This document shows, piece by piece, positions 2 through 60,289 of a stretch of DNA of 64,000 nucleotides. Below the pieces are notes generated by a model that was not told the origin of the DNA, did no database searches, and saw only the letters and a program-made list of their open reading frames with translations. The stretch is from contig JANPFV010000055.1 in NCBI GenBank assembly GCA_031423615.1, positions 474 through 64,473 on the forward strand, read 5' to 3'. Source of the DNA: Candidatus Omnitrophota bacterium. GTDB lineage: Bacteria; Omnitrophota; Gorgyraeia; Zapsychrales; JANLHA01. The translations under genes were made by a program, and so were the position numbers. The first letter of the stretch is position 1. Every line of letters begins with the position of its first letter.

Positions 2-480
2 TATCAATTCCAGATAGCAAGAATCAAGTTATTTGAAAGCAAGTTTGGGCAAACTCCGCTGGGTGAAAGGGTCAATAGTATTGTTGAGTTCTCCGACCTG
101 CAAAATTATATCGCCGCCGATCAGCCTTATAACGCCGTACGCTTGGTCTTGGCTATTATGTCTCAGGAATCGTCGTTTAAATCTACGGCAATCAGCGGAA
201 GTGATAATGCCGACAAAGATATCGAGAAGAGAGCGCGGGGCTTGATGCAAGTTATGCCTGCGCACCCATATGCCAAAGGGATGGATTTATTTGATCCATG
301 GACCAATATTACGATCGGCGTCAGAATATTAGCGGATGCTTTACGGGATGCTAAAGGAAATGTTATTCAAGCCTTAAAATTTTATTTTGGCGGAACCGAT
401 GTGAGAAAACACGGTCACCGAACAGCCGCTTATCCCGGCGACGTTTTGGTAAAATATGCCCAACTCGACAAAATTCCGAG
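2..480 (+). other. SLT-type lytic transglycosylase (GH23-like) domain, running off the 5' edge of the window
   Basis: The motifs are 'LAIMSQESSF' (catalytic Glu-Ser), 'ARGLMQVMP' and 'ALKFYFGG', in the order typical of soluble lytic transglycosylase domains. Confidence 0.7.
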
Positions 481-33400: not shown

Positions 33401-36400
33401 GCCCGAGCCGAGCAGGATAAAGAAAAAATCAAAATAATTTTTGCGGAATATGTGGCTTGGTTAAGGAAGGTGAGAGGAAAGATTTTAGATCATACGACAC
33501 CCCAAGAGCAAAAGGCCTTGACCGGTTTCGCCCGGGCGATTGTTGATCTGGATATTGATGAAGCGTTAAACCAGGATGCCCTCTCAGATTTGGAGGCTAT
33601 CGGAACAGCATTAGGACTAGACATTCTTCATAACGAAAATATCGGCGCGGTCATTCAGGACAATATGATTCAAAGAGAAAAGCTCCGTGTTTCCAAGGAC
33701 AGCGTTTTGGCGGATTATTATTCGCATTTTATTGTGAGTTTGAAACCAGCTGAGGCTGTCGTGGATATGGAGACATTGAGCGTAGCCGACCGGCATATTG
33801 CTGGATTTAATGCTTATGGTTTGGCCTTGATGAGGGAAATTACAAAATATTTGAGGACCCATGGTCATAACGTGAGAATGGCCCGCGGTTTTGTGGTATT
33901 GCGGTACGTTTTTGAAACGCCGGAATTTGTTGAGTTTAACTCCACCATTTTAGAAATTCTTAACAACCGTCCGGCAGATGGGGCCAAGCGAGTCAGGGCC
34001 GCAATTGAAAGGGTTATCTTAAGCGAGGAATTCAAAACAAAAGTCACACAAATGTTTCAAGACATTTTGCCTGGCCAGAGAGCCATGGTCAGTGTTTCTA
34101 CGCCGATAGATCCACTCTTGTCGGACGAAGAAATATTGCCGGAACCTGTGGATGCCTCGAAGGTCGTTGACATTCTTAAAGACGTTTGGATCCGGCATTT
34201 TAATGACGAGTGGTTTGAGCGCGTATCACAGATCCAGCAATGGGCTAAGGAGAGTTCGGTACATCACAATTTTGTTATTGAACGGTATTATCCGGCGGTT
34301 ATTTTCCACGAATTCATCGGCGCCAGAAATCGGGTCTCGGTAAACATGGTCAATCCATTCACTGGCCATACAAAAGAAATGGCGGTGGCCGCGGGCCATG
34401 ATTTGATTATTGCGGAGCAAGCGACAGGCAAGAAACGTTATGAATATCGCGGTGATGGCGTCGGTATTGCTATGTATCCGTTCATTAAAGACTTGCTTCG
34501 ACAGCTGGCCAGGACCCTGTCTATTGTCAACCGGGCCCCGTTAAGGATTAAATTCATCCGCAAGCCAGATGGAGAGGTTGTCATCTGGGGAGCAGTTCCA
34601 GTTTTATTGCCCGGCGGGCTTAAGAATTTTGGTATGCACTCCACATTATCCGCCCGGTTGATCGAAGTGACTCCGGAAGGCGGGTTGAGAATAACGGTGC
34701 GTTTTGAAAGTGATTTTGATTTAAGGACAACCGACATCGCCGATATGAATAAGGCAACCAATCCCATCCAGATCATTGATTTAGAAACCAACAGTGTGAT
34801 TGAAGAGTTTGAATGGTCCATTAAAGAGAAAAATGTTTTGATGCTGAGCATTGAAAAACTATTGCGGACTTTTACCCTTAAATTAGACCGTGGTTTCGGG
34901 CGCGGGCCGGACGGCCAAACCCGAACCTATCTCAAATACCCCTTGGTGGCCGTGGAACCATTTTTATATGCTATTACCGTAGAGGGTAGAAAAATTACTG
35001 TACCAGAAATGAGAACTTTCGACGAGGTTTTAGTGTGGTATGAAAATAATTTGGCAGAAGAAAAAATGGCTGCCTCTTCAGCCCTCACTCTCGACGGAGA
35101 AAACGATCTTCTTCAGCTTGCCAGCTCATCGTCGGCTGTAAATCATACTATTCGTTCGCTCCCGGGTGGAAAACCCCTGACCGATGATGAATATACTCAA
35201 GCGAGAACGGGCCATGATCTTGAAAAACTGGCAAAGAGCAGTAAGGCAGATGAGATTTTGGCCGCAGGCAGGGACTTGGCTATCGAGACGTTATGGAAAT
35301 TTGCCGAGGACGCCCGAGCAATGGCCTTGCAGAATTTATCTTCGCAAAGAAATGTTCATATTATTGTAGGGCCTTTCCGCGGATTTTTAGCAGCCGGTTA
35401 TGAAGAAAAAGGCATAAAAACTATTTTGCTTTCAAATTATTATGAAAGCCATTACACCAAAACCGAGGTCGTAGTCAGTCTAATCTATGTCGCTGACCAT
35501 TTGGTGTTCCCCGATCCGGAAAGAGTCAAGCGCCTGACTCAAGAATTTTTGCAGGAAGAAGCACGAGTGCCGGCAACCTGGGACATGGTGAAATTGGTTT
35601 ATGACCATACAAGAAAGATGATTGAGAGTCATCCTCTCGATTGGGAAAAACGGATTTATACAAGTTATGCCCAGAATGGAGCCAGTGCTTGGCGGAGAGT
35701 TTATATGGAAGTTTTCCGCCGCTTGTCTCTTACGACCGATAGTCAGGATATTAGAAGAAAAATATCGTGGATTCTGGGACAAACAGAATTTCTGGGTTTT
35801 GATGTATGGCAAGAAGTGATGGACAATGAAAAGGCCGTGGAGACGACCTTAAGGGCTATTAACACAGCCAATCTGGTGAATAGGCAAGCCCTTGTTCATC
35901 AACTCCTCAGTGTCCTCAATGCGGATTGGGAAAATAAAGAAGAACCGGCTTATCAGCGGGCCATGGGGGTTTTAGACGGACTAGTTAAAGCCATTCCATC
36001 GGGTATGGAAAAGTTAGCGACCCCGTTAAGCCGTACGGAACCTTCTTACAGTATCGCCTTGACATGGCTGAGTAAGCAGGGTTTTCAGGATGCCCATCAC
36101 ATTGCGACAATGCTAAGGTCGGTGATGAGTAATTCTCATATTAAAGTTGTGGAATTTGAAGGTTTTCTTTTACCGGCGACATTATATGAATTTGTCGACG
36201 ATCAAGGAAGAAAAAGGACCACCATTTTAGTGTCCCGCTTTTATGTTGAAAAAGGAAATGAAGTCCAATTGGCAGGGGGGTTGATCTATGCCATAGGAAA
36301 AAGGCTGGGTTATCCGCAAGCTTTAATGATGGTGATCAAGAATGCCTTTTTTATTGATCAAGCGAAGAAAACTGTCGGTCCTCTGGCCAAGAAATTTACT

Positions 36401-39400
36401 GAAAGTTTTGTCCCGGTCGCCATGACCCTTTTTAACACGATGGTTGATATCAATCCGGTATTACAAGCCATGCTTCCGCCGTTTCTTGTCGGAACAATCG
36501 AAGAAGTTGTAGAAAGCTTGATGCCCAGTAAGATCCACCAAATGCGGGACACGATCAGTAAAATTTCAGAAGAACTCGACACCTTGATCCGTCATGAATT
36601 GGCCATGGGATTGGATCAGGGGATGACTTTCCCGGAAGTCAAGGATCGTTTAGAAATGATCGCCAGTTTCGCCTTTGGGAAAGACTTGGATGAATTGCCG
36701 GTTTTAGAATCGGTTCCTGATCGTGAGCTTCAATCCCCCGAAGGCTTGGCCTGCGTTAAAATTTATTCTCCTTATTCAACTGATCAAGAACAAGCCGCGG
36801 ATACAAAAATACATACCACCTTGATCGTAATGCCCGACTGGCGGCATTCTAATTTGCATGTTTCTCCTGATAAAGATTTGGTCGAAAAGTTCCGTAAGCA
36901 AGGACAGCGCGTTGCTGTGCTGGAATGGCAAAACCCGAAAGAAAATTATTCTTTTGGCATATTTTTACACGTGATCCATTTCTTTGTGGAAGAACTTGGA
37001 AAAGATGGGCCGGTGGATGCCATAGGATATTCGCAAGGCGGGGCATTTCTTTTATTAATGATTGCTTTGACCGAATTTAATCCTAACAACAGCGGCCGTA
37101 AAAATATTCCTGTGGCAGTAATGACCAGTGAAAATGACATCATGGTTTCTTCTCAATCAACCGCAGTCATGGTGCTGGTTCTGGAAAGAAACACAGGAAG
37201 TCGAGAAGATGAAGTTGCCATTTTTGATTCCGATGCCGTCCATGAGTTGCTCCTGACCGACGGACCCGCCTGGGACTCTTATTTGGAATGGAGAAGTTCC
37301 CATCTTTTTACCGGTACTGGCTTGGCTTCCTTATTGTTGGTGGGAACGCCTGTGGGTGTTGGTTTCTTTGAAAACATGGGAGGATCCACTCAAATCAAGC
37401 AAATGAAGCAAATGATGATGGACCGCAAAACAGGCAAATTGCCCGGTCGTTTGTTTGCCCAGTCGACTCTGCTTCTCGCCGGAGGAGATTATCTCAGGAG
37501 GATGACGAGTCAAGCTTTTGCGGAAATTTCCTGCACCGATCCGGCCGTTTTTCGCTATGCCATGGATTACCGTGGCCGTTGGCAGGAACAATTGGACCAA
37601 CTGCAGAATATAGCAAACGGAAAAATATCAGCCGCTGATTTAAAAGAGGCGACGCTGTTATTGCATTATGTCAGCCGTAACAGTCTGGATCATTCACCCG
37701 AAACTTTTAAAAAAGCAGTGGGTGAATTTAGACAAGAATTGCTGCGCTTTATTGAAGATGCTCTTTTGCGGAAATGGACCTTGAATATGCCTGATCTTGA
37801 TGCCGAAGCTCTCTTTGCATATCTTAGCTTGGTTTTTGGTGAGGAATATTTGACCAGCCTATCCGCCCAGGAAGTCTTTCAATTAAAACTCAACGCCTCC
37901 TCTGCCTCATCGGCGCTGGATCATTTTCCGGCTGTTGTATCAGGTCAATTGAGCCCGGAATTGGTAGAGCGTATTCGTATTTTAGCGGACGCGGATTTAA
38001 CGAATTTTCGTAGTAACGAGAATTTGGACAAAATCGATAGACTTTTTGGCGAATTAAGCGATATCGGCGGCGAAGACGTCTGCAATGTCGCGCTGTGGTT
38101 GATAGATGAGCAGTTAAAAAAGATTACTTATCAAGATTGGCCTTTGGAATTTGTGGTCTTGACCGGGAATCGGGTCCAATTTATGGCGACCTTGGGACAT
38201 TTTGAAGGATTTCAGGCGAGCTTGAGAATATATGAAAAAGGAATCCACGAAATGGTTGAACATAATAAAAAAAGCCCCAAACCTATAAAGAATTTCTTCC
38301 TGCCTTATAAAATTCTTATGGAAGTGTATTCCACGCTGACTGTGCTGATCGCTGCCCATGACGCCCCGGACATTCTTCTGGGTGTGGCCAACGCCGCTCT
38401 GATTTTTAAGAATTCCGTCGGGCAAGAGCTAGGATATCCTAAGGAAACCGCGATTATTTATCATCAAATGGGAATGGTTTATTGGAAACAAGAAGATTAT
38501 AAGCGTGCGCTGGAATATTTTGTAAAGGCTGAGAAACTGGATTCAACCGAGGTCATTTATGGTTTGCAGCATGCTCGCGCTTGGAAAAGGCTTGGCTACT
38601 TGGATAGGGCGAGGACACAAGCCCAGGAGACAATCGCGCGTGTTAAAGGAAAGGGCCGGGCCCATTTTATCTATGGCCTGACCGTCGTTGAAGAAGCTGA
38701 AAGGTCAGGTTCCCAATTACCGGTCGAGGAGGGAATAGAACATTTAAAGAAGGCCGCGGCCTTAGACGAAATTGCCCAAGATCTGCCTGCGAATGCCGTT
38801 GCCCAAATAGAGAAAGATTTAGCTCAAGCCAAGATCCGCCTGGATGCGGCACGTAAAGATAAAGATCTTATAGCAGAAATTGCCGTGCTGGTTAAGCTCT
38901 CAGTCGCCAGTACACCTGCTGATAATCTTTGGGCGGTTTTGGAACCTTATTTGCAAAATGAGGGAGATGTCTTTTTATTAGCGGCGATTGAAGGATTGGC
39001 GGGACATGATCGCCGGTTTAGAAAAGTTTCAACGCCTTTATTGGTGATGTTGATATTACACCCGCGCGTGGGGGTGAAATCACGCAACGCTCTTAATAAA
39101 GAATATGCCCTTCGCGCGCGGGAATGGCTTCAGGTCAGTGAAGAAATCATTGGCCTTGATCAAACGAAAATCCCTTCGGATGAGCTCACAGCGCATGTTG
39201 TCTTGGGCGCGGAACTGTTTAGCGCTATTGAAAAGAAAGCAGAAAAGACATTTGAATTAAAGCCCGCAGAATGGAGCCGGGCCCGGGTTTTATTGAAAGA
39301 ATTATCAGAATTGTCAGAAAAATTGGCAAAGCACTTGGCGGCAGAATTAGCGGCGCAATTGGCGTCCCAAGAGCAGGCAGAGAAAACCATTGATTTGGAT

Positions 39401-42400
39401 AACGGTGAATTAGACGGTTTTAAAAAACGCCTGGCAGAAATTAATAATTCGGATAAAGATACGCAAACGGATTTGTGGCTGAGGTTCCCGGTAAAATCTG
39501 ACGATGAAAATAACGATTACGATTCAATGTTGCAAGCTATAAAAGAATCGTTAAGAGATTCTGCATGGCATGCACGCGAAACTTTATTGTCGGAAATCGA
39601 AGCTTTAGAGGCTATGCCCGCCGGCGAAGATTTGGCAACGCAAAGAGAATTGCTCAATGACCTTTGGAAAAAAGCTGAAGCCATTGTGGTTTGGGAGGTT
39701 GATGGCGAGGAGTATGATTTTAGTTTATCGCTGTTTTCTAAATTGAAAGTCCTTGAGGAACGCATCGCGGTTTCGGAAAAACAATTGCGGGCCCGCTTGG
39801 CCAAAGGCTGGTTGGGCACCTTGCTTTATGACGGCATCATTGAGCGGACTTTAGAAAAACGCGTGGATGAATTGTTGCGGCATGAAAGCGATGAAGTTAA
39901 GCTGATGTATTTTTTGGCGTATGCTTTTGCAGATAGAATGCCGCAAAGTTTATTGAATATGGAACATATTGCCCGACCGATGGCGAGGGCGATTCTCTTT
40001 CAGCCGTATGGCAATAGAGTCGCTCCTCGGCATTGGAAATGGCGGGAAGTCGCCGCTCTTTTTCCGTCGCCCATTACCGGTGAAATAGCTAATGCTATTT
40101 CCAAACGTGTTGTGGAACTTTCCAAGGTTGATACGAAAACAATTGCCGCGCAAATTTCTCAAGAATTCGCTTCCCCCCCCGTTTCCAGCTGCGCGATAGA
40201 AAGTAGGGACAGACCCTACTTTTCTAATATTCAAACGACCAGCGGGCGTATTTCCGGAGAATTCAATCCGCCGTCGGTTTCCAGCTCCGCATTGGGTGCA
40301 TTATTGGCTAAAGCGCAAGCGATGGAACATGATCGATTATTGCATTTGTTGAGGCAAACCTTTCCTCAGGCGGCAGAGGAGCTTTTGGCGAGAGGACGTT
40401 TAGAAGAAAAGAATTGGACTTCTTTGGTGGCTATAAATGCACGGTTGTATTCATCTTTTGCGGACATAACGGAAGAAATTTTAAGGCTACACAGAATGGG
40501 CATTAAAAAAGTATGGTTGATTGGGATTTTTGCGGAAAGTTTGATCAGTGAAAAGTGCGGGCAGGCCAATTATGACCTTCGGTTAAATTATGGGGACCAA
40601 GAAGTTTATTTATATTTTGATCGGAATAATGACGGATCGATCATTTCCATCGTGAGGGAAACAAAAAGGGGAAGTAAAGATTTGAGCGCAGCGGCATTTG
40701 CCATCCCCGAGCATGAGCCCAGCAGCAAGTTAGGCGGCAGAGAAGAATTAAGAAAATTATTCCAGCGTACGGCTGGCATGGATATTTATGTGGATTTTGT
40801 TCCGCACAGTACATCGGTCGATTCAGCGTGGCTTCGTGATGAAAACATAATGACGGGCGAGGGATACTGGTATGTGTATAAAGATTTATCATCAGAAGAC
40901 CAACAAGCTCTTCACACTTGGGAAGAGGGACGTTATTTATCCGTCGAAAATGCAGGGAAACCCGAGACATGGATTCCTGCCCAAGAGCAATTTATTAGAA
41001 TAAGCGAGAAAATTCTTTCAGAAAATACTGGATACTTCCTCCACCGATCTACAAAATTGAATAAATGGATTCTGATTGTTTTAAGCCGAGATGCGACCAT
41101 GAAGCCGCGCGGGGAATATTTCAATGACATCCAGGTATTAATTGATTTGAGTAATTCTCAAGCGCGGCATGAATCGACCAAAGATGCAGTAGGTTTGGCC
41201 GAGCTTGGGGCCCGCGGTTTTAGGATGGATTCGGCGCAAACAGGTGTTGTCGGAAAGAAGGGCGAAGAAAGAGGGTTTATCGCAACGTGGAGTGATCATC
41301 AAATTACTAATCCTTCCTTAGGTAATAATCAGCAAGAACTCTATGAAGAGATGATTCCTGCTGTCCGTCTAGTGACACCTGATTTTGAATTCTTTGGCGA
41401 AGCCTTTTGGTTTTTTGATGTCTTAGAGCAGAGCGGATTCGACAATTTATTGCAGATATGGGTCTATATTTTAATGTCGCGGAAAAGAGACATTCCCCAG
41501 TTACGTAATTATCTCCAAAAGACGAGTTTGGATGAGCATAACCGACGTATGCACGGATCGATAAGTCATGATGATTCACCCAATTATCGATTTGAGCGGT
41601 TGGCGGATATATTGGCTGTAACGAAAAGATTTTTAACTCAAACGGTGATAACGGTGACAATTCCGGGGAGGGTTCTTTTTCATGATGAGCAATTAGGGTA
41701 TGGCTATTTGGTTGCCGCCACTAATCGCAGAATGGTGATCGATGATGTTGAGCATAAAGATGTCCGAAAGGCCTTTGAAGACATGGTGATCTTGGCCGAA
41801 GACCCGGTTTTAAGACGGGGAGAAATCCATGTTTTCCGCAATAATCATCCGCAAGTCTTGGCTTTTGCAAGATATATTCCGGGACGAGCGATAATAGTCA
41901 TAAGTTATCACGGTGCTTTTATTTCTCGAGCCAAGATTGAGAAGCTGGCTGAGCAATATGAATTAGAGTGGTCATCGGTGGCGCTATTCTTTGAACACGT
42001 TCAGTCGGGAGATGATCACCTGGTATTAAAGAGAGAATTTGATGAAATTATTCAACAAAGTCCTTTGCCAGAGGAGTTCAAGTCAGATCTGACAAGAGAA
42101 CTGCTTAAGGGACTGCAAGGGCAATCCGCTAGGGACTTGCTGGACTTGCGTGACGTTGCGCAGCAGATGGGAATTAGAAATGAGGATAATGCATTTTACG
42201 TATTGCTTGATCGATTAAACGGCGCTGTATTTTTAAGGACAGGTTCGGAATTAGTCAATCAGGGTTTATATGTTTCCTTGCTAGCTAATGAAAGTCATGT
42301 ATTTATGATTGAGCAGGTAAGGGGCGACAATAAACAGATCCGTAAAATTCTTAGAAAAGCGAAGGGGAAAGAATTATCAATTGCAAATATTTATCGTTTG

Positions 42401-45400
42401 GTTAACGACTTTGGCGTAAATGTATCATTTGTACCTACGGGCTTGCTTGCGAAAGCAGAAATTATCAGATTGCTTATTCAGCAAGGGGGAAATGTACAGG
42501 CTGTCTTGGCAATAATGGGAAACAATGAATCCGAAATCGATGTTGACGAAAGCCGTTCCTCATCCTCGATAGAAAGTAGGGACAGACCCTACTTTTCTAT
42601 TGGCAATGTCAGAATAAATATCCGAGGTCCCTATTTATCACCAGAGATCACGTCTCGTGTTACTTCCAGCGGTGACTATTCCTCTTCGGCAGTCCAAGCG
42701 ACAATTGTTGCTTTTATCTGGACTGTCCTCGTCTATGGTTTTACCAACTGGCTTTACCGACTGGCAAAGGCTCGCTTGCAAGAGGCTAGAGATATCCTTT
42801 ATGGTTTAAATGGGAAATACATGTTAAATGAACTTGAGAAACGAGGACTTTTAAACGAATTCAACGAATCATGGTTGAGCTATCAAGCATCAGAACTTCT
42901 CTTAGCAGACATTGTTTATGAGGAAACACATTTATATGATGGCTATTTGTTCATGTCAAAACAAATCGCTTTTTATTTTGTAGGATTCTTTGCGTTTTTA
43001 GCATTTCTCACCGCATTGAATAATCCAACGGGCTTGGCGTATTTTATAGCTGTCCCCAGCTGGTTTATTTCTCTTATGGCTTTGATCCATATTCCTCGTC
43101 ATGCTTATGAAAAAGGAGTGCGGTCACTGCAGAGAATTGCTGAATACAACGCCCGTCGGACCGTTTGGAATGATGAAAATACAATTGATGCAGTAAGCAA
43201 TCCTGATCAATCAGCCTCCTCGTCGCTGTATCTGATAGAAGATTCGTATTCCAAAATTATTCCAACATCTCAAAGGAATCTTAGAAATGCTGGTCATAAG
43301 ACAGCGTATTTTCTGACGCGTTTTTCTACCGTCGATAAAAGCCAGCAATGGGGTTCAGGTTCCGCTTCCAGCGCGGTGCATGAGAATTACACTGCTCTGC
43401 AAATTGAAAAAAGAAGGATTGATTGGGCTATTGCTGTGGCAGAGGCAAAAATAGCCCTTGCTCAACAGAAATTTGTGGAAGTGGATGAAAGTTTTCCGGA
43501 AGGAGAATTTCAAACATTGCGATACCATGCTTTTAAACTGAGCCTTTTGCTTGAGCACTTTAACAGGAGGATCCGCAAAAATCAAATGGGAGGGGCATTA
43601 ATGTGGGCTGGTCTTATTGCAGCCATATTTAATAGGAGAAATCCCAGTGCTCGACTTGACGCCGTGATTGTGGGGTTGATAGGGATGGCGTTAGAGGCTT
43701 TGGATTGGTTTGGGCAATGGTTGGAAGAATCCGTTCTTAAAATGGTACAACCCCAGCGGGAACTTGGTTGGGGGTACCGTCAACTTTATGCTTTGGAAAA
43801 AATGCGATTAGATGCGGTCGGCGATTTGGGTGAGTTACGCTCGGAAGCCGAAACCATTGAGAATAGAATTTTAAAGTATAAGAACAAACTCATAAATTGG
43901 CTGACCGCTCAAAATGAAATCAGTGAGATAAAGGTTTACCTTGCGTCATTTGTGGCTACTGGGGCGATATATTATCGAACACAACAGAATCAAAAAATTA
44001 TTATTGGACTGTACTTACGAGCGAGCATGGCCGCATTAAACAGTATTATTACAATGCAACGCAGTGGTGAAAATAATAATGAATTTGTTCAAACCGTTGA
44101 CACGTTCCTTAAACGGTCAATGGCGGGAATCATTGATCAGGATGACCAAATCGATGGTTTACAATTGATTTTAGTGGTTAATGAGGTCTACACTGAATTG
44201 CTCACACCTTTATCGCAATTACAGGTTCTTGCCCAAGCTGGACAGATTTCTGAGTTTGTTGTCAATGACCACGGCATCGATCTTTTTGCAACTTTGGCTC
44301 GTCATGGAATCACAACCAACGACATGACTTCTGACCGATCGTCCTCGTCTTTAGACGAAATAGTGACAGGCACTAATTTTTCTGGTTTTTCTTCGTCTAA
44401 ATCTCCCGCGGCCTCGTTGTCGGTTAAAAAATCTGTGCGATGGAACAAGGTTGTCAAAAGTAGGGACAGACCCTACTTTTCTGACAAACAAGATTCGCCA
44501 GAGGATGGAGAAAAAACGGTTTTGAATCCGGTCCGTTCTTCTTCGTCGATTGAACAAGGGAAAAAGCGTTCGGTCATTATCCCCACCTTTGTAAGTTCTT
44601 ACAAGCGGGTTTGGCGTTTATTAACATCCATCGGTGTTCCGGATTCTATACGGCCGAAAATAATTTTGATTCCCTTGGCTTTTGTTGCCTTGGTTTTCTT
44701 TGCGGTCGTAGGATTGTTCGGCAAGATTACAGATTTATGTTTTATCAAACAATTTTCAGGTGGGATAACGGATGAACAGCATCAAGGGAATACGGAAAGA
44801 AAATTTGCTCAGTCTATTTTGGCGTTTTGGCAATTTCTTACTCAACCGCTCACCGGAATCATGAAACAGGAATTAAATCTGCGCCTGCTTCCCGTCGTCG
44901 CCGCGTTATTCTTGGTCTCCGGCGGGTATTCTTTTCTCCCGATCTTTTTATTTTTGGCGGCGGGGCTTCTTTTGATAGGCTTTAGCAGAATTAAAATGGA
45001 TACAGCACGGGAGCTAACTACGCTCTTGCCGGTTATTATCGCGGTCAATAATTTGGCTGGATTGGTTCTTTTTGCCGTCCTGTCATTATTTTTGACCCAC
45101 CCTATCATTTTATCTGTGGGTCTAGGTGTGGCTTGGGTAGGTCTTACGGGATTGCATATTTTTATTTTAGTAAACCGGCAGAAATTCCTCGATACGTTAA
45201 AAAAGTTTGACCGTCAGTATGCCAATAGTAATTTACAACATCTCAGTACCGTTAAAATTGTCGAAGGTCAGGGCCCGGTCATTATTGCGGTGCATGGGAT
45301 TGGCCATAATGCAGTTATCGACTGGATGGTTTTGCGGCTTTTATTTCCCGGGCGGCCGATAGTCGTTCCTGTCAACTGGCGTTCCGATAATACGATGAAA

Positions 45401-48400
45401 GAATTTTTGAGCATGAATTTAGAAGAACAAGAGCGAAATCTTTTGATAAAACTAATCGGTGAAAAAGATAAAGCGATGCGCGCTTTGCTCTTTTTGGCTT
45501 GGATGATTGGTTACTTTGAGAGAAAAAGCGGCCAACCCGTTATGATGCTGACCTATTCTCTTGGCGGACGCAGGCTCTTGTCGCTTTTTAGTGACAAGGA
45601 TTTTGCTAGAACCGTGAAGGAAAAGAGTTATCCACAAAAATGGCTTAGGCTGGCGGAAAGTATCAAACGAGAAGTCATCACCGCAATTCCCGTCGGAAGA
45701 GTAGGATCATCACGATTGCTTCATTCTGTCCAGCTTATGGGCATGGTCATTGTAGCAAATTTGTTGGAAGCCACTTTAATCATTATTCGTATGCTCATTA
45801 TGGCCAATTGGATGATTAGGATTTTTGAAGCCGGCCGTCTTCGTCATGAGACCTACGATAGCATTGTGAAATATTCAACCAAGCAGAGTTTGCGGGTCCA
45901 GACGTTATGGTTGTTAAGGAAAATAAGTTTGAGCCCGCGAAGAATTAAAAAACTTAAACAAATGATGAATGGGATAGCGCTTCATATTGTCGTTGGAGAA
46001 ACCGATCACGTCACGCCCCTGGACACGAATCGTGTTTTTGCTGAAAGAATCGGTGCTACTTTCTCGGTCATTCCTCACGCGCATCATAAGGGTGTGATTT
46101 ATTCGGTCCAGTATTTAAAAGTTATTAGACAGCTGCTCAGTGATGAGGAGCAAGGCCCGGTTGATATTGCAGAATTGCTGAAAGGTTTGGTTATAGAAAA
46201 TGTGACCTTTGCCCAACAAGGTCAACAGTACAACACGGAATCCTCAATGTCGGATGCCATGGCTGGCGTCGTAACCACGCTTAATGAGTTTGCCGGTTCT
46301 TATGTCGAAGCCCTTTGGCCAAAGAGTTTGACGCTGAAAGTTACCGAATCTTCTTTTTTAACTCATGACCAATTCGTTTATTTGGAAAACAGCCAGACCG
46401 CGATTATTCATGCTGATTTCTTTAAACTGGCGCCTAAAATGCGAAAGGGTATTTTGTACGGTGTGTTCGTCGGACAAATCGCTCGGCAAGTCGAGAATGA
46501 TTTTCAAATGAGAGTAGCTACCGACCGGTTATATGACGCCATTGATGAGCAGGAAAACGGAAAATCAAATTGGGATTCTCACTCGGCCTTTTTCGCTTTG
46601 AAAAGCGAGTTGAAAGAATTAAAAGACCGCATATGGACAAGGGTCCACCCGGTTCTTTTGCCGCCGGTGGTAAAAGTGCAGCGGGAATATGATATGGATC
46701 AATATATCCGCCATCACCCGCCTTCTCGTCTTTCCAAAAATCATAACACCGACGTCTCTTCCTCGGCCCTAGAAAGTAGGGACAGACCCTACTTTTTGCA
46801 GAAAGTAGTGGCAGGCACTAATTTTTTTAGCTCTTCTTCTTCGATTTATTCTTGCGCTTCTTCATCGGTGGAAGAACCTATGCAGTGGAATAATTTTGTG
46901 GGTAAAGAAGCCATTTCCCACGCATTAAGCGAAGTGACCCAGCCGTTAAGTCTGGAGGACCATTTATTGAAAACCGTACCGCAAGATTATCAGCGAAGCC
47001 GACAGAGATATGCCAGGAGTCATCAGAATTCTGATCAAGGATATAATAGTGCGCTAATTAAGGAGTTTTTGGATCTTTATGAAATCATGATAGGACATCC
47101 AGGGGGATGGACGATAGAGCAGTTATGGAATTTGTTTTCCCATATTCAAAAAGCCCACCCGCGTTATATAAATTCTAGAGAATTCCTGGTTGAGATGTTT
47201 GTATTTTTTCAGAAACAAAAATATCCTTTTGAAAGACAAGGTCCCTTGTGGTCATTGACCGGGCCCGTGCAGTTACAGCTCAATATTATATTACCTCCTC
47301 GGATCGTGAATGGCGCAGGCTTGCGCAAATTTCGTCTGGACGTCAAATTAGGAATAGAGGATGCGGCAAAACGTTTAGGTACTTCCGTAGTTAGTTTGAA
47401 AAAGGCCGAGAACCAAAAAGGGCCGGTGCGATTTAATGATCTTTCAATGTGGCCGCGAATAGTTGAGCAGTATGGGTACGACAAGATGGCGGTGTGGTTA
47501 TTAATCGCTCAGTTGCCCTACGAAATTGCTATAAGACGCAGTACGCTGGGGCAAAGATTTGCGTTGGTGGGATTGGCAAACGGAAAAACGATGGAGCAAT
47601 ATGCAGAAATACTGGGTATCCATAGAACCGAGTTACATTTAATCATTGCCGGTAAGAAATTCCCTCCTCCGGAGGTTTTAGACCGCATGAACTCCTATTT
47701 TGGTATCTCTGATCAAGATCTTTTAGCCCCAACGGAAGGAATCGTTGTTGAGGGATGGCCTTTGAACAAAGCGCTTTTGGAGATGGGAAGCAAGATTAAG
47801 ATTTTCTTATACCCCAGTCTTTATCAAAGGATAGCGACCGCCCGATCCAAAGATATTTGGGTGATGTTGACAGGGCATAAAAAGGATGAGGCTTTGGCAA
47901 TGACCTTACCGCACCGACGACTAGAGCTTTGGCGTCTTGTTGTGGGTCTTACTGTCCTAGAATTGGCTGCTCAGATGCAAATAAATAACGATACATATTA
48001 TTCCCATATTAGTGGTGAGATAAATATTCCAGAAATACAAAAGATAAAATATGAAGAAATTTTTGCTCCCGCGACAAGAGCAGAACTCTTTGGTAACGAA
48101 AGTCCAACCGTAAAAAGTAGGGACAGACCCTACTTTTCTAATAATTCTGAAGTTTCTTCTTCGACGATTAGTTCCGCATTATTTATAATAAACCAGATTA
48201 GGGCGTTGATCCTTATCAAAGCAATAAGAGCTGTTTTCGCTTCTCCGCTTCTTTATGCAATTTCCCTTCTGTGGCCAATGTTACCCTTCTGGTATTTACT
48301 TGCGGGAGTGTTCCTGTTGTTAATGATTCATGGGTTTTACCGAAAGCACACCACACATTTTTTCCGTATCAGAGAATTCTTCGTCGAAGTGTTGATTGGG

Positions 48401-51400
48401 CGTTTGATAAGGAGCATAAAGGAAAGCCGTCAACAGAGAATTATAATTCATTCCGCCGGGGCCGCTGATTTTAAAGAAGCGGTTTCTATCGCAATCGCTA
48501 TTTTAGAGGATTATAAAAACCATCCGGGAACATGGAACGGCGTTGATCCGCAGAACAGTGTCGTGATTTATGCAACAGAAGGTAGTGAAAGATTATTTGC
48601 GAAAGGTTCGACTCTTGTATACAGCATTGATGAAGTTTGGTACAACGGGCTTACCGGTGTCGAGCGGTACGATTATTTTGATCGGCTTGAGCGGGATGGG
48701 AAAGAATATTATATTGCCAAGCCTGTTATTCAAGAGATGATTCGCCCTATCAGGGCAGATTTAGAAAATGTTTCCCTTCTTGAATCTGTCGATATCGTCT
48801 TGTTGCTTCATGCAATGCATTTGAATACACCGGCCAAGATAAAAAAAATCGTCGGCAATCTAAAAAGCTCATTGAATGATCAGGGTGTTTTTATTGTGCG
48901 GCATGGTCATTGGGGCATTCCTTATAGAAATATCTTAAAAGAAATCTTTCACGACGTTAAGGCCAAAACTTTATTCCACCCACGCGTGCATTATGAAAAT
49001 TCCCCCTATGACAGCGTAAATTTATTTGGTTGGGAAGGTATTTGGCTAATCCCGCTAATTCTGATATTAAAATTAGTTTTGAAAGAGGCCTCTTATCAAA
49101 AGTTAGTTGATCTGAGCCCGAAGGGCATTGAACCGTTTGAAATCTATTCTTACCGCGAAACGGATACGGAAAGGAAAAGTAGGGACAGACCCTACTTATC
49201 TAAGAATTCTGAAGTTTCTTCTTCGACGATTAATGACGGGGCAAAGGAAAAAGTAGGGTCTGTCCCTACTTATTTGGCGGTATTTTCAAATGAAAGTGAG
49301 GGAAATAGCTTTGGCGATTTAGGCGTCGTCGTTGTTCGTTCCTCCGAGCTTGTTGCTGATAGAGCGGGTAATACTTCAAGCTGGTATTATTCGCAGGTCA
49401 TTCAACATTTCATTGCGAGCGAGACGGGAGTATCACTGCCATCTCCTGTTATTAGATATAATCCAATTGAAAAATTATTGGGGTATTTAGATGAAAATGC
49501 CGCAGGTCGCAATCGTAAAGGCAACGCTGACGGTGTCATTTCAACAGAAGTTATTTTTTATAAGTGTGAGAATCAGCGTGGCGAAGCCACGTATTCATTA
49601 AAAGCAACGATTCGCCAAGAGGGACTGAAATCGCCAGATAGAAATTGGGAGATGATAAAAGCAAATGAGGTAGGATTCAATCAGCTTGGTGCACTATTTC
49701 TTATTAGAATATTGGGTCAAATGCGATTTCAAGAAACTCATTATTTAGGAGAAGGTCAGGGTTTACAGTCGTTGGGTTTTCTTATGAAAGAAACAACCGT
49801 TCGGTTAGAGTATGAACGAATGCGAAATGGCATATTTGAAACGAGAGTGTTCATCGACCTTGATCCTCTATTAGCAAAATATGCTAATAATAGAATTTCT
49901 TCCTCCGCCTCAATAACTACCCGACATCCCGATTTATCTGCCTCGTCGGCGATTTCATTGCTCCATTTTGCTGCTACGGATTCGCATCCTTTATTCGGCA
50001 TTTGGGCGAAAGGGTTAAGCGCCCGCGATGAACTGATCTTCGCGGCCCGTCAATCAGGGTTTTTAGGACACTATATTCAAGACCGCCTCGAGCATTCTTT
50101 CAGGGGCCACATCGGAAATATTTATCAGCCGCCGCAAGCTGACTATCTTGTGATGTTGAATCTTTATTGGGAAGGCGTTCGAGCGAATGTGACGCAGCAT
50201 ACCTATGGTGACGCAGTGTATCTCTGGCGTGAATCCGCAGCGGGATATGAGTTTTTGATGTTGGATTACGGGACGGGCGTTATTAATCGCGATGGCAAGC
50301 CGGTTGAGGATATCAGTCAAATTTTCAATTTAAAGTCATACCGCCAGGGCGGGTATGCCCCGGACGGTGTTGAGCGTGGCGGCGGCCAGGGTCTGGGGAC
50401 TAAACATGTCTCTGATTATACATATTTGACACGATTAATTTCAGTCAATGCCGGACGAGTCAGGATCGTTGAGAAAGCTGTACCGGGTTCTACGCTATTC
50501 TCACGGATCGCAACGAAAACGATCCAGACAAACTTTGACTTGACCGAGCTGGGGATTGACCGTAAGAAAGTGGCTGGCGTTATCGTCCAGGGATTTGTTC
50601 CTATTGAAGAAAAATTTTATAGTGGGAGATTCTCCCCGGTTACAAAAGACAGCATTTTGGCGGCCGTTCATACAGAGAGCGCCCTGCCGCGAATAAGGGG
50701 TTCCTGGCAAATTCCTTGGGCATCAGGTTTAGACCGGTTGAAAGCTGGTGATGCCATCACGATTATTTATTATCACCCAGCTGAGAAACAGCAAGTCGTG
50801 GAGATGAATGTTACATTGAAGTCATTGCCGTTTTGGGAGGGCGGCCCGATGTTCTCTATCGAAGGCGGACGCATTTTGCACGATAGTAAGCTCACGTATG
50901 TAAGAGCGCCCAAAGGCGAAAGAGAATTAAAGGGCGGCTTCGATTTTCTTAACGCCATCGCTGCTTTAGATATTAAAAGAGGGGATCAGGTCATTATTCG
51001 GTACAATGATACTATTATGATCGACGAAAAAGTGGAATTAACCGGTACTATCCGTGCGGTTCCGGCGCCGGAGAACCAGGGCGTTTTTGAAATTGAACAC
51101 CATGGCGGCGTATTGGACATCGGGCCAACTCATATTAAAGAATTTGTTAATGTCGGGAAGACACCGACAGGCATTCATTTATCCGCCGGTTCTTCTTTAA
51201 TCACCCCAAAGAAAGTAGGGACTGTCCCTACTTACTACAGGGCTAGTTCCGGACTAACAAAAGCGCAGAGGGAGCGGATTGAAGTTAATTATCAAATTAC
51301 TTTACGGAGAATTCCGATATTTGGTATCGAGTGGGCGGGGGATTTTAAGCGTGATTTTGCTGGTGAGGATCCGGAAATCACCATAGCTATTTTAAGGAGA

Positions 51401-54400
51401 TTGATCGCTCTGGGCGATCCAGCGATTAATAAAGGTGTCGCGTGGATCCTGCAAGATCCATACTATTTTGGACATAATGTTTTAGCGACGATTGATGAAA
51501 AGTACGAGGCGGGAGGGGACATCAACCGGTGGCTCGGCGAAAGACACAATATAGGTATTAATGCTGCAGTTCTTGATTTGGTGCGATATGTATTCTTGAC
51601 GGAAACTCCCGGTGCAGCCAAACACGCCCGCGCCAAGTTTATTTTGGAGGCCCAATATGGTTTTAATAAAATTGCGGGGATAGGCGGCCTGCCCGCATTA
51701 CTAAGAAATCCGCGCAAACTTTACGGCGATGTGTCCGATATCACCGCTATTATGCCAAAAGCCCGCCGAGTCTTGGACGAAGACCTAGGTCTTAATTCGA
51801 CGCAGATTGTTTCACTTCCGACCCAATATGGTTTTGAAATCTATGTCGTTTATCTTGGCGCACAACCCACGGGCAGTTTCAAAGTTTGGATTGCTTACGG
51901 GATTATTAAAGCGCTCCGGGACAACCCGAATATTGATACGATCATCCTCGCTACGACGGGAAATCAAGGTATTGCCAATTCCTATATCGGCCAGATATTA
52001 AGTCAAAAGCTTGGGCGCCCAATCAAGGTCATCATTTATACCCCCTACGACACACCGTCGGTCAAGATTGACGCCATGGAATCTTATGATGCAGATGTTC
52101 GCAGGGATCCTGACGTTAAAAATTATGACCAGTCGGTCACCGTTGCGAAAAGAGCATATGAAGAAATAAAAGACCATGCTTATTTTGTCGATCATGCGGG
52201 GGCGGAGGCGCTGATCTCCTATGCCGCTCTCGGGGACACGATCCTTGATACCTTTGAATCAATGACCGGCAATTTGCAGGATACCGCGATAATCGGTCAA
52301 ATAGGCGCGGGAGGGCTTTTAAGCGGGGCTGCGGCGGCAGCGAAGTTCCGTAGTCTCACGACACTCGTCTTCGGCACACAAAGCCTTTTGACCCGTCACG
52401 CTTATGAATCGTTTGTGTGGGGAGAGATCAGAAAATATGTTTATGATAATCAAGCCCTGATTCGCTCAACCGGCATTGACACCAAAGAATTAGAAAAGCT
52501 CGCTTTTGAAGTTTTACGGAAAACATTAGACGGCATGTTCCTCGTTGATGAGAACAACATCGATGCGGCGATCAGGCTGTACCATCGCAGCGGAATCATC
52601 GCCGAACCTGCCGCCGTCCTCCCGTATTTGGCATTTGTAGTATCCCGTCGAATTTTGCAGAGACTCGGTGTTAAGAAAGTGCTTTTGTTGTCGAGCGGGA
52701 GCAATATTTCACCCGCAGATCATGCGCGTGTCATTGCTTCTGAAATAAATAAAATAAATAGGGACGGCGCCTATTTATCCCATGTATCCGCGGCTGTTTC
52801 CTCCTCATCGGCGGTTGAACGCAATGACGTTCTGACGAAGTTGACGGCGCGAGCAGTGGAGGTTGCCAGACAATCTACGGTTTCCAGGTTATCAGGACTG
52901 CCAAAAGTCGGGGCATTGGTTGTTGATTGTGATGGGAATATCGTCGGCGAAGGGTATAACAAAGAGTTTGGCGGCGATTTGCATGCAGAGCATGCGGCGA
53001 TACTCAGCGTTGTTCACAATTATTTACGAACACGACATGATGATTCAGACAGAAAAATGGTGTCCATATTAGCGATTTCAATTGTGATCTGGCCATACTT
53101 AAATCGGCGCGAACGTGGATATGAAAGAAACTTTGAAGATTTAACGCGTCGTTTCCTCCAGTTAGCAGATCAGACGGAGTTGAGTTTTAATGATCTCTCC
53201 TTAATCGTTACAATGGCTCCTTGTACTCGATGCTCGGCTCTGATCGGTAAACTTGGGTTCAGGTCAGTCTTCTATCCGGAGAATTCTTATCCTTCGCAAC
53301 GGGGTCTTAGTATTCTTGAAAAAAGTGGTGTAACCACTTTTGGTCTTCCTGTTGAAATTGATCAGGATCTTCAGGGTTGGGCGTTTAGATTATTTAATCG
53401 CTTTCCGTGGATATACAAAACGAGCCATAAGTTACTTCGTCAGTTGCGGGGTAATAAAGAAGGAAATGAAGATCGTAGGAAAAGTAGGGACAGACCCTAC
53501 TTTCCTGACAATCCCGATGTTTCGTCGTCGGCCCTTGTTCTTCCTGCAACCTTCCTAGCAGAAGGGTTAAAAGTAGGGTCTGTCCCTACTTTTTCGTTTG
53601 TGGCGGAAGTGATCGGTTCTTTGGGAGCTATCCCGCCAGGGGCAACAGTTCAATATAATGGAATGAATAATAGCGGAAATCAGTTTGGATTATTGCCGAT
53701 AAAACTTAGTGCGCAAGGACAGGCGTTCTTGGGGACTTTTGCGAAGAATTCCGGGATCCCCGAACAGGCTAAACTTTTAATTTTTAAAGCGGGAGACGAT
53801 AATTATAATGGGCGCTTTAAAGACATGGGGCCATTAGCTGTTGGATTGATCTTTGATGTTGCGGCACAAAGTCAAAAAGGTTATTTTGACTTTTCATTCT
53901 TATGGCAGATATCAGGAACACATCCAGAATTTTATTTTAAAAACGCCAAAGAAACTTTAAAGAGCAATAGACTTGATAATTGGATTGCATTTCAAATTGA
54001 CAAAAAACCAGCAGTCATTCGTCCATTTGATGGCCAACTGAAAAACAGTGGCTATTTCTTAGAGTTGCTAATTATTTCACCGCTCAGGGATCAAGCTCAT
54101 TCTTATTCTGGTTTTTATAATTTGGAAGTGGAGATGGAAAGCCTGGAAGTTTTTCCTTTTAATGCTCCTGCCAGTGTTGATATGCAAACAGTTATATACA
54201 ACAACAGAAGATTATTGAAGTCCAAGCGCGTTCATGTCATTGGCTCCGGCTTGGGAATCGATGTTGTGATGGCTTTAAAGCATGGGGCCCGGGAAGTCAG
54301 TTATTTTGACATTAATCCGGTTCATCAGCTTATAACAGGCTGGAATGCTTTGTATGCAGAACACAATGGCGAGTTTTCTTTAGCAGGGCGTTCTCGTTCT

Positions 54401-60087: not shown

Positions 60088-60289
60088 TGAAATATGCCTA
60101 TTTATAACATAAACCAGAATTTTTCCAATAGAAAAAATCCTGATAATCCTCGGCCGCTATAAAATGCAGCGTTTTATAAAAATTGAAACAAACCGGAATA
60201 TTTTCAACAAAAAGTCTTCGCTGTCTTTGTATAAATAATTTTAACCTTTGTTGCAGTGGCATTTCATCGATGTTATAATCCAAAACATC
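60088..60289. promoter_or_regulatory. AT-rich divergent intergenic region between mutS (- strand) and the downstream + strand gene, presumed to hold promoters for both
   Basis: It is a 200-nt AT-rich spacer between divergently oriented genes, with TATAAT-like hexamers (tataat at 60277-60282, and tatatatat at 60062-60070 for the - strand). No -35/-10 pair is firmly assigned. Confidence 0.3.

Follow-up and report, generated by a model that had tools for sequence, protein, structure and literature searches.

The window, by which we mean the whole 64,000-nucleotide stretch of Candidatus Omnitrophota DNA analyzed here, contains a single giant ORF followed by two genes on the opposite strand. The true start of the giant ORF lies beyond the window, since no in-frame stop is found upstream of it. 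Near its C-terminus, a PLP enzyme, a CDA-fold deaminase and a methyltransferase module follow one another in one frame (51.2-54.8 kb). An earlier note on this DNA had proposed three catalytic modules bracketed by palindromic linkers; all three lie in the frame of ORF 143..55711, the three fold assignments are correct, and palindrome copies were located at 51213, ~52754 (decayed), 53482/53571 and 54802. The features are as follows.

143..55711, + strand: giant ORF, 18,522 aa inside the window, open at the window 5' end
40201, 42574, 44458, 46774, 48115, 49177 and 49251 (span 40201..49271): seven palindrome copies that delimit upstream modules
51213..51233: palindrome copy with loop ACTGT and peptide KVGTVPTY, upstream border of the PLP module
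51234..51796, + strand: N-terminal extension of the PLP module, conserved from nt 51659 in the relative P0001
51797..52699 (aa 17219-17519), + strand: fold-type II PLP enzyme domain, PALP PF00291 (E=4.4e-34)
52754..52813, + strand: linker with a decayed palindrome (about 52754-52778, AAATAGGGACGGCGCCTATTT, peptide NRDGAYL) and the Ser run SSSSA
52838..53335, + strand: zinc CDA-fold deaminase, dCMP_cyt_deam_1 PF00383 (Pfam span aa 17566-17711 = nt 52838-53275)
53482-53502 (forward, SRDRPYF) and 53571-53591 (reverse, KVGSVPTF): inverted palindrome pair flanking a Ser-rich linker
53582..54166, + strand: N-terminal alpha/beta domain of the methyltransferase module, conserved in stand-alone homologues
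54167..54799, + strand: class I SAM-dependent N-methyltransferase domain with motifs I, II and IV
54802..54822: palindrome copy, forward, SRDRPYF followed by SSSA, downstream border of the methyltransferase module
54823..55711, + strand: C-terminal tail, 296 aa plus stop, with no family match
55718-57520, - strand: convergent mutL, starting 7 nt past the giant-ORF stop
57502-60087, - strand: mutS, beyond mutL, a chromosomal housekeeping context

The Pfam domains of the giant ORF comprise SLT (at the window start and truncated by its edge), GT48 glucan synthase, TPR, HTH_XRE, CheR, PALP and CDA. The HTH_XRE module (~47.5 kb) and the CheR-type methyltransferase (48.35-48.9 kb) are both delimited by palindrome copies. 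The GT48 region finds its nearest homologue, at 34-42% identity, in an ORF that spans a contig of a Candidatus Omnitrophica MAG. Hydropathy predicted about 25 TM segments in all, clustered at aa 5328-6800, 14183-15228 and 16022-16313, and none beyond aa 16313; the CheR module is separated from the three-enzyme region by a weakly hydrophobic segment (aa 16295-16313). TM predictions for such giant proteins are unreliable (10.1101/2023.11.21.568195), and the predicted topology is uncertain. Self-BLAST of the giant protein revealed no internal paralogy at E<=1e-6. GC and GC3 per module are mildly heterogeneous (GC3 0.36-0.48) and give no clear signal of foreign origin, and Rfam and tRNA scans for RNA genes were empty.

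The PLP module matches PALP PF00291 with 118.6 bits (cutoff 35) over profile positions 7-295 of 295. Over its full length it can be aligned with serine racemase 6lut (E=1e-22), threonine deaminase 1ve5 and TdcB. The Schiff-base lysine is found in TGSFK (nt 51869-51883), aligned with the TGSFK of 6lut, while the phosphate loop GAGGL (nt 52304-52318) and the SGSN motif (nt 52691-52705) have GGGGL and SGGN as their counterparts in the solved enzyme. Ser/Thr dehydratase/racemase equivalogs (IlvA, TdcB, EutB and others) scored at best 87 bits, against NCBIfam cutoffs of 317-800. The module belongs with the serine racemase / Ser-Thr dehydratase subfamily, by resemblance only.

The deaminase matches dCMP_cyt_deam_1 PF00383 with 43.1 bits (cutoff 25) and carries the motifs HAEHAA (nt 52982-52999) and PCTRC (PCxxC; nt 53219-53233). 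The spacing of 79 aa from HAE to PCxxC is unusual, and probably reflects an insert of ~50 aa relative to typical CDA enzymes. Among solved structures, the deaminase comes closest to dCMP deaminases, RibD, cytosine deaminase and TadA. Pfam returned no significant match to toxin-deaminase families at E<=1; besides dCMP_cyt_deam_1, the only hit at that threshold was Inv-AAD (E=0.026), below its cutoff. A single-sequence structure model (pLDDT 46) was unusable for fold search. Judged on these sequence relationships, the deaminase is predicted to be of the free-nucleotide/base type, like dCMP, RibD and cytosine deaminases, and of a housekeeping kind. It ends at about aa 17740, and the 780-810 aa or so that remain to the C-terminus include the 400-aa methyltransferase module and the tail of about 296-297 aa. 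A weak match to the NCBIfam model 'anti-phage dCTP deaminase' (E=5.6e-5) raises the question of whether the cassette is an anti-phage defence module like the dCTP-deaminase system. The score of 22 bits stands against a cutoff of 400, the match is restricted to the shared PCxxC region, and the context is a giant membrane protein beside mutL and mutS with no defence-system partners, which makes such a role very improbable.

The methyltransferase module covers aa 17814-18219, with palindromes on either side at aa 17810 and 18221, and its whole length aligns with stand-alone proteins of 413-460 aa (410-460 aa across the family). Its C-terminal half has a Rossmann-like class I methyltransferase fold. 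The motifs present are motif I, VIGSGLGID (GxGxG; nt 54236-54262), with G240 and G242 invariant in the family alignment; an acidic motif II, YFDINP (nt 54302-54319), with the acidic residue after strand 2; and motif IV, LFNTPA (nt 54431-54448). The latter is a variant, L-F-N-T-P-A, of (D/N)-P-P-(Y/F) in which N305 and P307 are nearly invariant and the second proline and the aromatic residue are absent. In a profile comparison, the family aligns with the motif I region of PRMT (E=2e-9). Of the Pfam assignments that the earlier note anticipated, PALP and dCMP_cyt_deam_1 were recovered above their cutoffs, whereas this module has no Pfam match, and the HemK2/MTQ2 NCBIfam model gave it 20 bits (cutoff 87). 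We interpret the module as a two-domain family whose C-terminal half is probably a HemK2/METTL21/PrmA-like N-methyltransferase. In contrast to HemK2/N6AMT1, METTL21, PrmA and PrmC, it falls outside Pfam and NCBIfam families, adds its own conserved 190-aa N-terminal domain and has the family-specific motifs S-x-D-F-Q, W-N and W-R. The family also occurs in other large multi-module proteins, with PALP and a PrmA-like module in P0022, which adjoins nusA-infB-truB-ribF, and with CheR in P0015 and P0018, the former also containing HTH. The same module types thus turn up elsewhere in large multi-module proteins with a housekeeping chromosomal setting.

Could the three modules be decayed, non-catalytic domains that serve as structural filler of the giant protein? 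They are very divergent, with scores far under the NCBIfam equivalog cutoffs, and the deaminase, besides its large insert, yielded no close homologues in a word-indexed search with the deaminase alone. However, the motifs are intact in every module (TGSFK, GAGGL and SGSN; HAE and PCxxC; GxGxG, the acidic motif II and N-x-P), and in the one relative found the catalytic and cofactor motifs of the PLP module are conserved at 63% identity. We regard decay as improbable.

This relative, P0001 (locus L001), lies on a 4.9-kb contig and was the only match in a word-indexed homologue search with the whole cassette. Its PLP module comes after a homologue of window aa 11343-11648 and before a segment of no assigned family and a NagB-like GlcN6P deaminase. 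The homology between the two proteins breaks exactly at the Ser-rich linkers in this one relative, from which the palindrome is absent; the window linker 52754..52813 represents a 19-aa palindrome-bearing insertion relative to P0001. As to the polymorphism of C-terminal module content that the earlier note proposed to look for, content after the PLP enzyme differs in this one relative, and content before it differs too. The variation in module content is real, and looks like shuffling at linkers rather than toxin-tip polymorphism.

The earlier note favored a polymorphic toxin/effector. On a reading of this kind, the giant protein would deliver its C-terminal enzymes into prey or competitor cells. 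In the target, the deaminase would mutate or deplete pyrimidines, the PLP enzyme would drain Ser/Thr and the methyltransferase would modify a host factor, with the target cell supplying SAM and PLP. Omnitrophota have been described as predatory bacteria, and Vampirococcus sp. LiM is reported to have highly expressed a giant protein when colocalised with Methanosaeta (10.1101/2023.11.21.568195). The SLT lytic transglycosylase domain, the differing content past the PLP enzyme in P0001 and the signal-peptide-like N-termini of 4 of the ~16 stand-alone methyltransferase-module homologues are also in keeping with delivery. Against this, HMM searches of the 18,522 aa found no RHS/YD, PAAR, LXG or other toxin-trafficking families. 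The YD-like repeats reported at 11.7-15 kb did not materialize, as the 11.5-15.2 kb region has no RHS/YD match at E<=10 and sequences of solved structures likewise gave nothing. The deaminase is of a housekeeping type and does not sit at the protein's end; Inv-AAD matches it only below threshold, and in P0001 its place is taken by a catabolic NagB-like enzyme, which is not a toxin. The cognate immunity gene that the note envisaged is lacking, because convergent mutL and then mutS lie directly downstream. On trafficking repeats, position, deaminase type and immunity gene alike, the findings thus speak against a toxin tip. We consider delivery of these enzymes unlikely and reject the toxin annotation of the cassette, which its testable features do not support.

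The module borders are marked by a REP-like palindrome, AAGTAGGG-N5-CCCTACTT, of 21 bases. It occurs in 11 near-identical copies, confined within the window to 40.2-54.8 kb, 10 of which are identical over 19 nt, loop orientation aside; 100 shuffles gave 0 matches. All 11 copies are inside the giant ORF, in frame, beside Ser-rich linkers ([AS]SS[AS]) at module borders. Orientation and codon phase are coupled: the forward copies are all in phase 0 (8/8) and the reverse or hybrid copies all in phase 2 (3/3). An exchange between one forward copy and any other would thus keep the reading frame. The flanks have diverged, and the core is identical even at synonymous sites. RNA of the inverted pair (53482..53591) is predicted to form a REPIN-like helix of ~26 bp (-61.4 kcal/mol, z=-6.3). 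A simple terminator pattern is present in 3 of the 11 copies, either strand counted, and a terminator role is a possibility. A genome scan with a degenerate loop returned, among the matches listed, mostly other palindromes of a related kind, from Burkholderiales, Sphingomonadales, Clostridia and CPR; among these listed matches, the exact palindrome was found elsewhere only in MAGs labelled Planctomycetales, and the same palindrome in other genomes was intergenic, single or in inverted pairs. A metagenome scan found only 4 copies, each single and intergenic, with no related giant gene at those copies, and viral contigs gave no match.

These observations bear on the origin of the region. The C-terminal third of the ORF might have arisen from once-independent genes, strung together by in-frame capture or reshuffling at REP-like palindromes and Ser-rich linkers, with the palindromes as recombination sites that preserve the reading frame. 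The number of copies against none expected, their confinement to 40.2-54.8 kb at gene-sized module borders, identical cores within diverged flanks, the orientation-phase coupling that keeps exchange in frame, the intergenic location of the same palindrome in other genomes (among the matches listed) and the end of homology to P0001 at linkers, with its palindrome-bearing insertion, are all consistent with this. On the other hand, the only relative is palindrome-free, and none of 95 palindrome loci has a RAYT-type transposase, a recombinase or a recurrent neighbor protein family nearby. At 21-26 nt, the core offers little length for homologous recombination, and selection on the peptide SRDRPYF, or the duplication of entire linkers, could account for the phase bias just as well. 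We therefore regard gene accretion as a doubtful account of the region. It concerns origin, and is compatible with the tethered multi-enzyme explanation below. As a long shot, phase-locked palindromes and Ser-rich linkers may build and reshuffle giant genes by whole-gene capture, deletion and exchange in frame. If so, they would parallel integrons and similar cassette systems at the level of coding sequence, which could explain the growth of ORFs to tens of kilobases, and the three enzyme modules treated here would each be a captured gene. Were the palindromes recombination or insertion sites, they would provide a testable handle on giant-gene assembly and diversification.

The explanation we favor, and hold to be likely, is that the modules are ordinary gene-sized enzymes strung along a giant multi-enzyme membrane protein of the Omnitrophota type. 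Three independent cofactor-dependent enzymes would be carried within the last ~2,200 aa, a region without predicted TM helices, each folding and acting alone as a tethered enzyme. They would be joined by the Ser-rich linkers, beside which the in-frame palindromes lie and at which module content appears to change. Their work site would be the cytoplasmic face, because PLP and especially SAM are cytoplasmic cofactors; the small-molecule chemistry at the cell surface that the earlier note offered as an alternative is unlikely, since the methyltransferase is SAM-dependent. The predicted chemistry comprises amino-acid and pyrimidine deamination and N-methylation of a protein or RNA amino group, and such chemistry suggests metabolite processing or salvage together with modification, not killing. 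NCBIfam scores of the modules are far below every equivalog cutoff, so a specific substrate is not assignable. From this cassette, the giant-protein repertoire would gain a PLP enzyme resembling Ser/Thr dehydratases, a deaminase of the dCMP type and an N-methyltransferase family not described before. The cassette also disposes of a toxin annotation that is tempting but wrong, and the module borders offer clean constructs for single-enzyme expression from an otherwise intractable protein.

Among known repeats, REP/REPIN elements, which RAYT transposases mobilize, share with the window copies a short hairpin containing GTAG, dispersal in several phyla with many copies per genome, and occurrence as singlets and as inverted doublets 60-125 nt apart. 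The window copies differ in being intragenic and in frame, in contrast to the extragenic location of REP/REPIN elements. In-frame insertions in coding genes have been described for Rickettsia palindromic elements (RPEs) and MITE/REP elements (PMC10969869). RPEs are likewise dispersed palindromic elements translated in frame as an extra peptide at permissive protein sites, and the same element is intergenic in other genomes. However, the window core measures 21-26 nt against about 150 bp for RPEs, a single gene contains all 11 copies, each at a module border beside a Ser-rich motif, no transposase link is known for them, and they couple orientation strictly to reading phase.

Polymorphic toxins (Rhs/YD, CDI, MafB, DddA-type) likewise place a CDA-fold deaminase in the C-terminal portion of very large proteins, and their module content differs between relatives. 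They differ from the window protein, in which the deaminase is internal and of a housekeeping type, its neighbors are metabolic or modifying enzymes, and Rhs/YD and trafficking domains and an immunity gene are absent. The closer comparison is with the giant proteins of Omnitrophota, termed 'Archaeovorins' in a 2023 preprint by West-Roberts et al. (10.1101/2023.11.21.568195). Omnitrophota giant proteins contain glycosyltransferases, methyltransferases and metabolic enzymes and are mostly unique in sequence (10.1101/2023.11.21.568195; 10.64898/2026.06.07.730766), and the 'multi-enzyme metabolic cluster' is one of their classes (10.64898/2026.06.07.730766). The 'unusual fusion' of the earlier note is therefore overstated, because multi-enzyme giant proteins are already described in this phylum. 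Archaeovorins differ in their HEAT, GT5/GT1, NUDIX, SecA-like and C39/S8 domains, which were not found in the part of the protein inside the window. Conversely, neither PALP, CDA and GT48 nor palindromes and conserved linkers are mentioned in the two preprints (10.1101/2023.11.21.568195; 10.64898/2026.06.07.730766). In common with Omnitrophota giant proteins, the window protein is encoded by one ORF far longer than 10,000 aa, has many predicted TM helices, is nearly unique in sequence, and is tiled by diverse, highly divergent enzyme domains (methyltransferases, glycosyltransferase and SLT).

The PLP enzyme, CDA-fold deaminase and methyltransferase-like module that form the cassette lie within the final 1,300 codons of a giant ORF. 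The lack of an upstream in-frame stop indicates that the gene starts beyond the window, and the truncation of an SLT domain at the window start likewise shows that the ORF extends upstream. Convergent mutL and then mutS directly follow the ORF, and the locus is thus chromosomal. The features are as follows (window coordinates).

143..55711, + strand: giant ORF, 18,522 aa, upstream without in-frame stop
143-400: SLT lytic transglycosylase domain (Pfam), profile positions 16-99
18275-19750 (aa about 6045-6535): GT48 1,3-beta-glucan-synthase domain (Pfam, E=1e-66)
28451-28627 (aa about 9437-9495): weak RelA/SpoT nucleotidyltransferase match (E=1.8e-4, under Pfam cutoff)
about 47546-47722: XRE-type HTH (Pfam), palindrome-delimited module within 46775-49178
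about 48350-48898: CheR-type SAM methyltransferase (Pfam), palindrome-delimited module within 46775-49178
about 52754-52778: decayed palindrome copy separating PLP enzyme from deaminase
55718-57520, convergent to the giant ORF: mutL, beginning 7 nt past the giant ORF stop
57502-60087, convergent to the giant ORF: mutS, next after mutL
60248-63190: 980-aa ORF, signal-peptide-like start from ATG at 60290, no Pfam family matched

The whole-protein Pfam scan also revealed TPR repeats, and a hydropathy scan placed ~25 TM-like segments in three clusters, with none beyond aa 16313. The GT48 domain is of the eukaryotic 1,3-beta-glucan (callose) synthase type and has a TM cluster on either side (aa 5703-5877 and 6523-6800). 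For the GT48 region, the closest match is an ORF that spans its contig in a Candidatus Omnitrophica MAG, with identities of 42% (GT48 query) and 34% (837 aa). Beyond it come a few unnamed metagenome fragments, and the named homologues are callose synthases of plants, stramenopiles and oomycetes, ~30% identical. Predicted TM segments flank the CheR domain (aa 16022-16060 on one side, 16295-16313 on the other).

The enzyme cassette described in the earlier note was confirmed. PALP (PF00291) matches aa 17219-17519 (nt 51797-52699) over the full profile with 118.6 bits (E=4.4e-34). Among solved structures, this domain is closest to serine racemase 6lut (E=1e-22), threonine deaminase 1ve5, TdcB and further serine racemases, and alignment to solved enzymes equates TGSFK with the catalytic lysine, GAGGL with the phosphate loop and SGSN with the SGGN motif. 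NCBIfam returned Ser/Thr dehydratase-type models only, each far under its equivalog cutoff. Thus, the serine racemase / Ser-Thr dehydratase subfamily is clear, while the substrate is not. The zinc deaminase also held up, with dCMP_cyt_deam_1 (PF00383) scoring 43.1 bits (cutoff 25) over aa 17566-17711 and both HAEHAA and PCTRC present, at an unusually long distance of 79 aa. Among solved structures, its nearest matches are dCMP deaminases (4p9c; T4 1vq2), RibD, yeast cytosine deaminase and TadA, and its NCBIfam matches are RibD and ComEB. A word-indexed search found no homologues, and a single-sequence structure model (pLDDT 46) was too poor for use. The methyltransferase module (aa 17814-18219) matches full-length stand-alone proteins and has a palindrome at either end (aa 17810 and 18221). 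Distant multi-module proteins with this family also contain PALP, PrmA-like, CheR and HTH modules; one of them, P0022, adjoins the housekeeping genes nusA-infB-truB-ribF. Hydrophobic, signal-peptide-like N-termini occur in four of about 16 stand-alone homologues (P0005, P0009, P0013 and P0014 in A1, the family alignment). These are odd for a SAM-dependent enzyme and may stem from misannotated start codons or mark exported effectors.

The toxin interpretation of the cassette, favored in the earlier note, is not supported, as all testable features of a polymorphic toxin were absent. No Rhs/YD or trafficking domains were found in the 18,522 aa, the deaminase is internal and of a housekeeping type, and the downstream position is occupied by mutL, with no cognate immunity gene. 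The supposed YD-like repeats at 11.7-15 kb are recognized by no RHS model. Window 11501-15202 (aa 3787-5020) is beta-rich, with a loose DxxGR / NPNTG periodicity that probably prompted the remark; it matched no RHS/YD or other family, and no solved structure by sequence.

The palindrome, AAGTAGGG-ACAGA-CCCTACTT (21 nt) or its reverse-loop form, occurs in 11 copies, all at 40.2-54.8 kb, against a chance expectation of 0 in the window; a search tolerating up to 3 mismatches gave no degenerate copies in the rest of the window. Ten copies share an identical 19-nt sequence, loop orientation aside, between flanks that are only 60-80% alike or unrelated, indicating conservation at the DNA or RNA level, beyond mere peptide level. 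All forward copies (8/8) lie in codon phase 0 and encode SRDRPYF, and all reverse or hybrid copies (3/3) lie in phase 2 and encode KVG(S/T)VPT. Every copy is adjoined by a Ser-rich motif ([AS]SS[AS]) with varying codons, and the copies lie at the boundaries of modules. Two inverted pairs (49177/49251 and 53482/53571) are predicted to fold into a ~26-bp helix, like REPINs. RNA-level signals, such as hairpins pausing translation or stabilizing mRNA, are one open reading of the palindromes; another is that they are selfish elements tolerated in linkers only.

Scanning genomes with the loop left degenerate matched >95 loci across many phyla among the matches listed, most with slightly different, fully palindromic loops, as REP-like singlets or inverted pairs. 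Among these, the exact window palindrome was seen only in Planctomycetales-labelled MAGs, and a metagenome scan added four contigs; it is single or paired there, and intergenic. It was not found in the viral contigs searched, and no transposase family recurred among the neighbors in 95 loci. The AAGTAGGG-N5-CCCTACTT family is multicopy in MAGs of Burkholderiales, Sphingomonadales, Acidimicrobiales, Clostridia, Saccharibacteria and Parcubacteria (loci L002-L096; examples are L005 5832/5889, L050 3588/3625 and L055-L057). Loop variants are lineage-specific, inverted pairs are frequent (spacing 40-125 nt), and identical 8-nt arms turn up in very different phyla.

At 63% identity over 363 aa, P0001 (901 aa, on the 4.9-kb JGI contig L001) is the only close relative of the PLP module in protein databases. 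The homology ends exactly at the linker, where alignment of the window (...ARVIAS-[EINKINRDGAYLSHVSAAV]-SSSSAVE) with P0001 (...DRIRAS-SSVDQ) reveals a 19-aa insertion in the window that holds the decayed palindrome. Downstream, P0001 continues with unrelated sequence and a NagB-like domain (glucosamine-6-phosphate deaminase), where the window has the CDA deaminase and methyltransferase. Upstream, L001 encodes a homologue of window aa 11343-11648, with homology stopping at AASSAL/SASAAI in a Ser-rich linker. Since homology breaks at linkers on both sides, module order varies between relatives with the linkers as breakpoints, as derived from this one relative. A third open reading of the palindromes, rated as unlikely, is that they are in-frame recombination sites permitting module gain, loss or exchange. 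At about 663-760 of L001, the upstream homology crosses a frame change and ORF boundary just before the PLP gene, possibly because of a frameshift (sequencing error or pseudogene) within what could be a longer ORF.

Described Omnitrophota giant proteins have many TM helices, many divergent enzyme domains (methyltransferases, glycosyltransferases, SLT) and largely unique sequences (10.1101/2023.11.21.568195; 10.64898/2026.06.07.730766). The giant ORF fits this architecture in its predicted TM helices and divergent enzyme domains. Taken together with the Omnitrophica GT48 homologue, this leads us to read the cassette as part of a multi-enzyme giant protein, in which it would form three tethered, independently folding enzymes. 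From cofactor logic, we infer that these would act on a cytoplasmic face. The ammonia-releasing catabolic theme shared by the Ser/Thr-dehydratase-like enzyme, the pyrimidine deaminase and the NagB-like enzyme of the relative suggests that they may process scavenged metabolites, and the methyltransferase may modify protein or RNA. Neither giant-gene paper mentions palindromes, and our literature search found no description of eleven phase-locked REP-like hairpins bordering gene-sized modules in one ORF. This DNA-level linker feature is noteworthy and deserves separate follow-up. In-frame palindromic elements as such are already known, and the window palindromes share this property with the Rickettsia palindromic elements (review PMC10969869).
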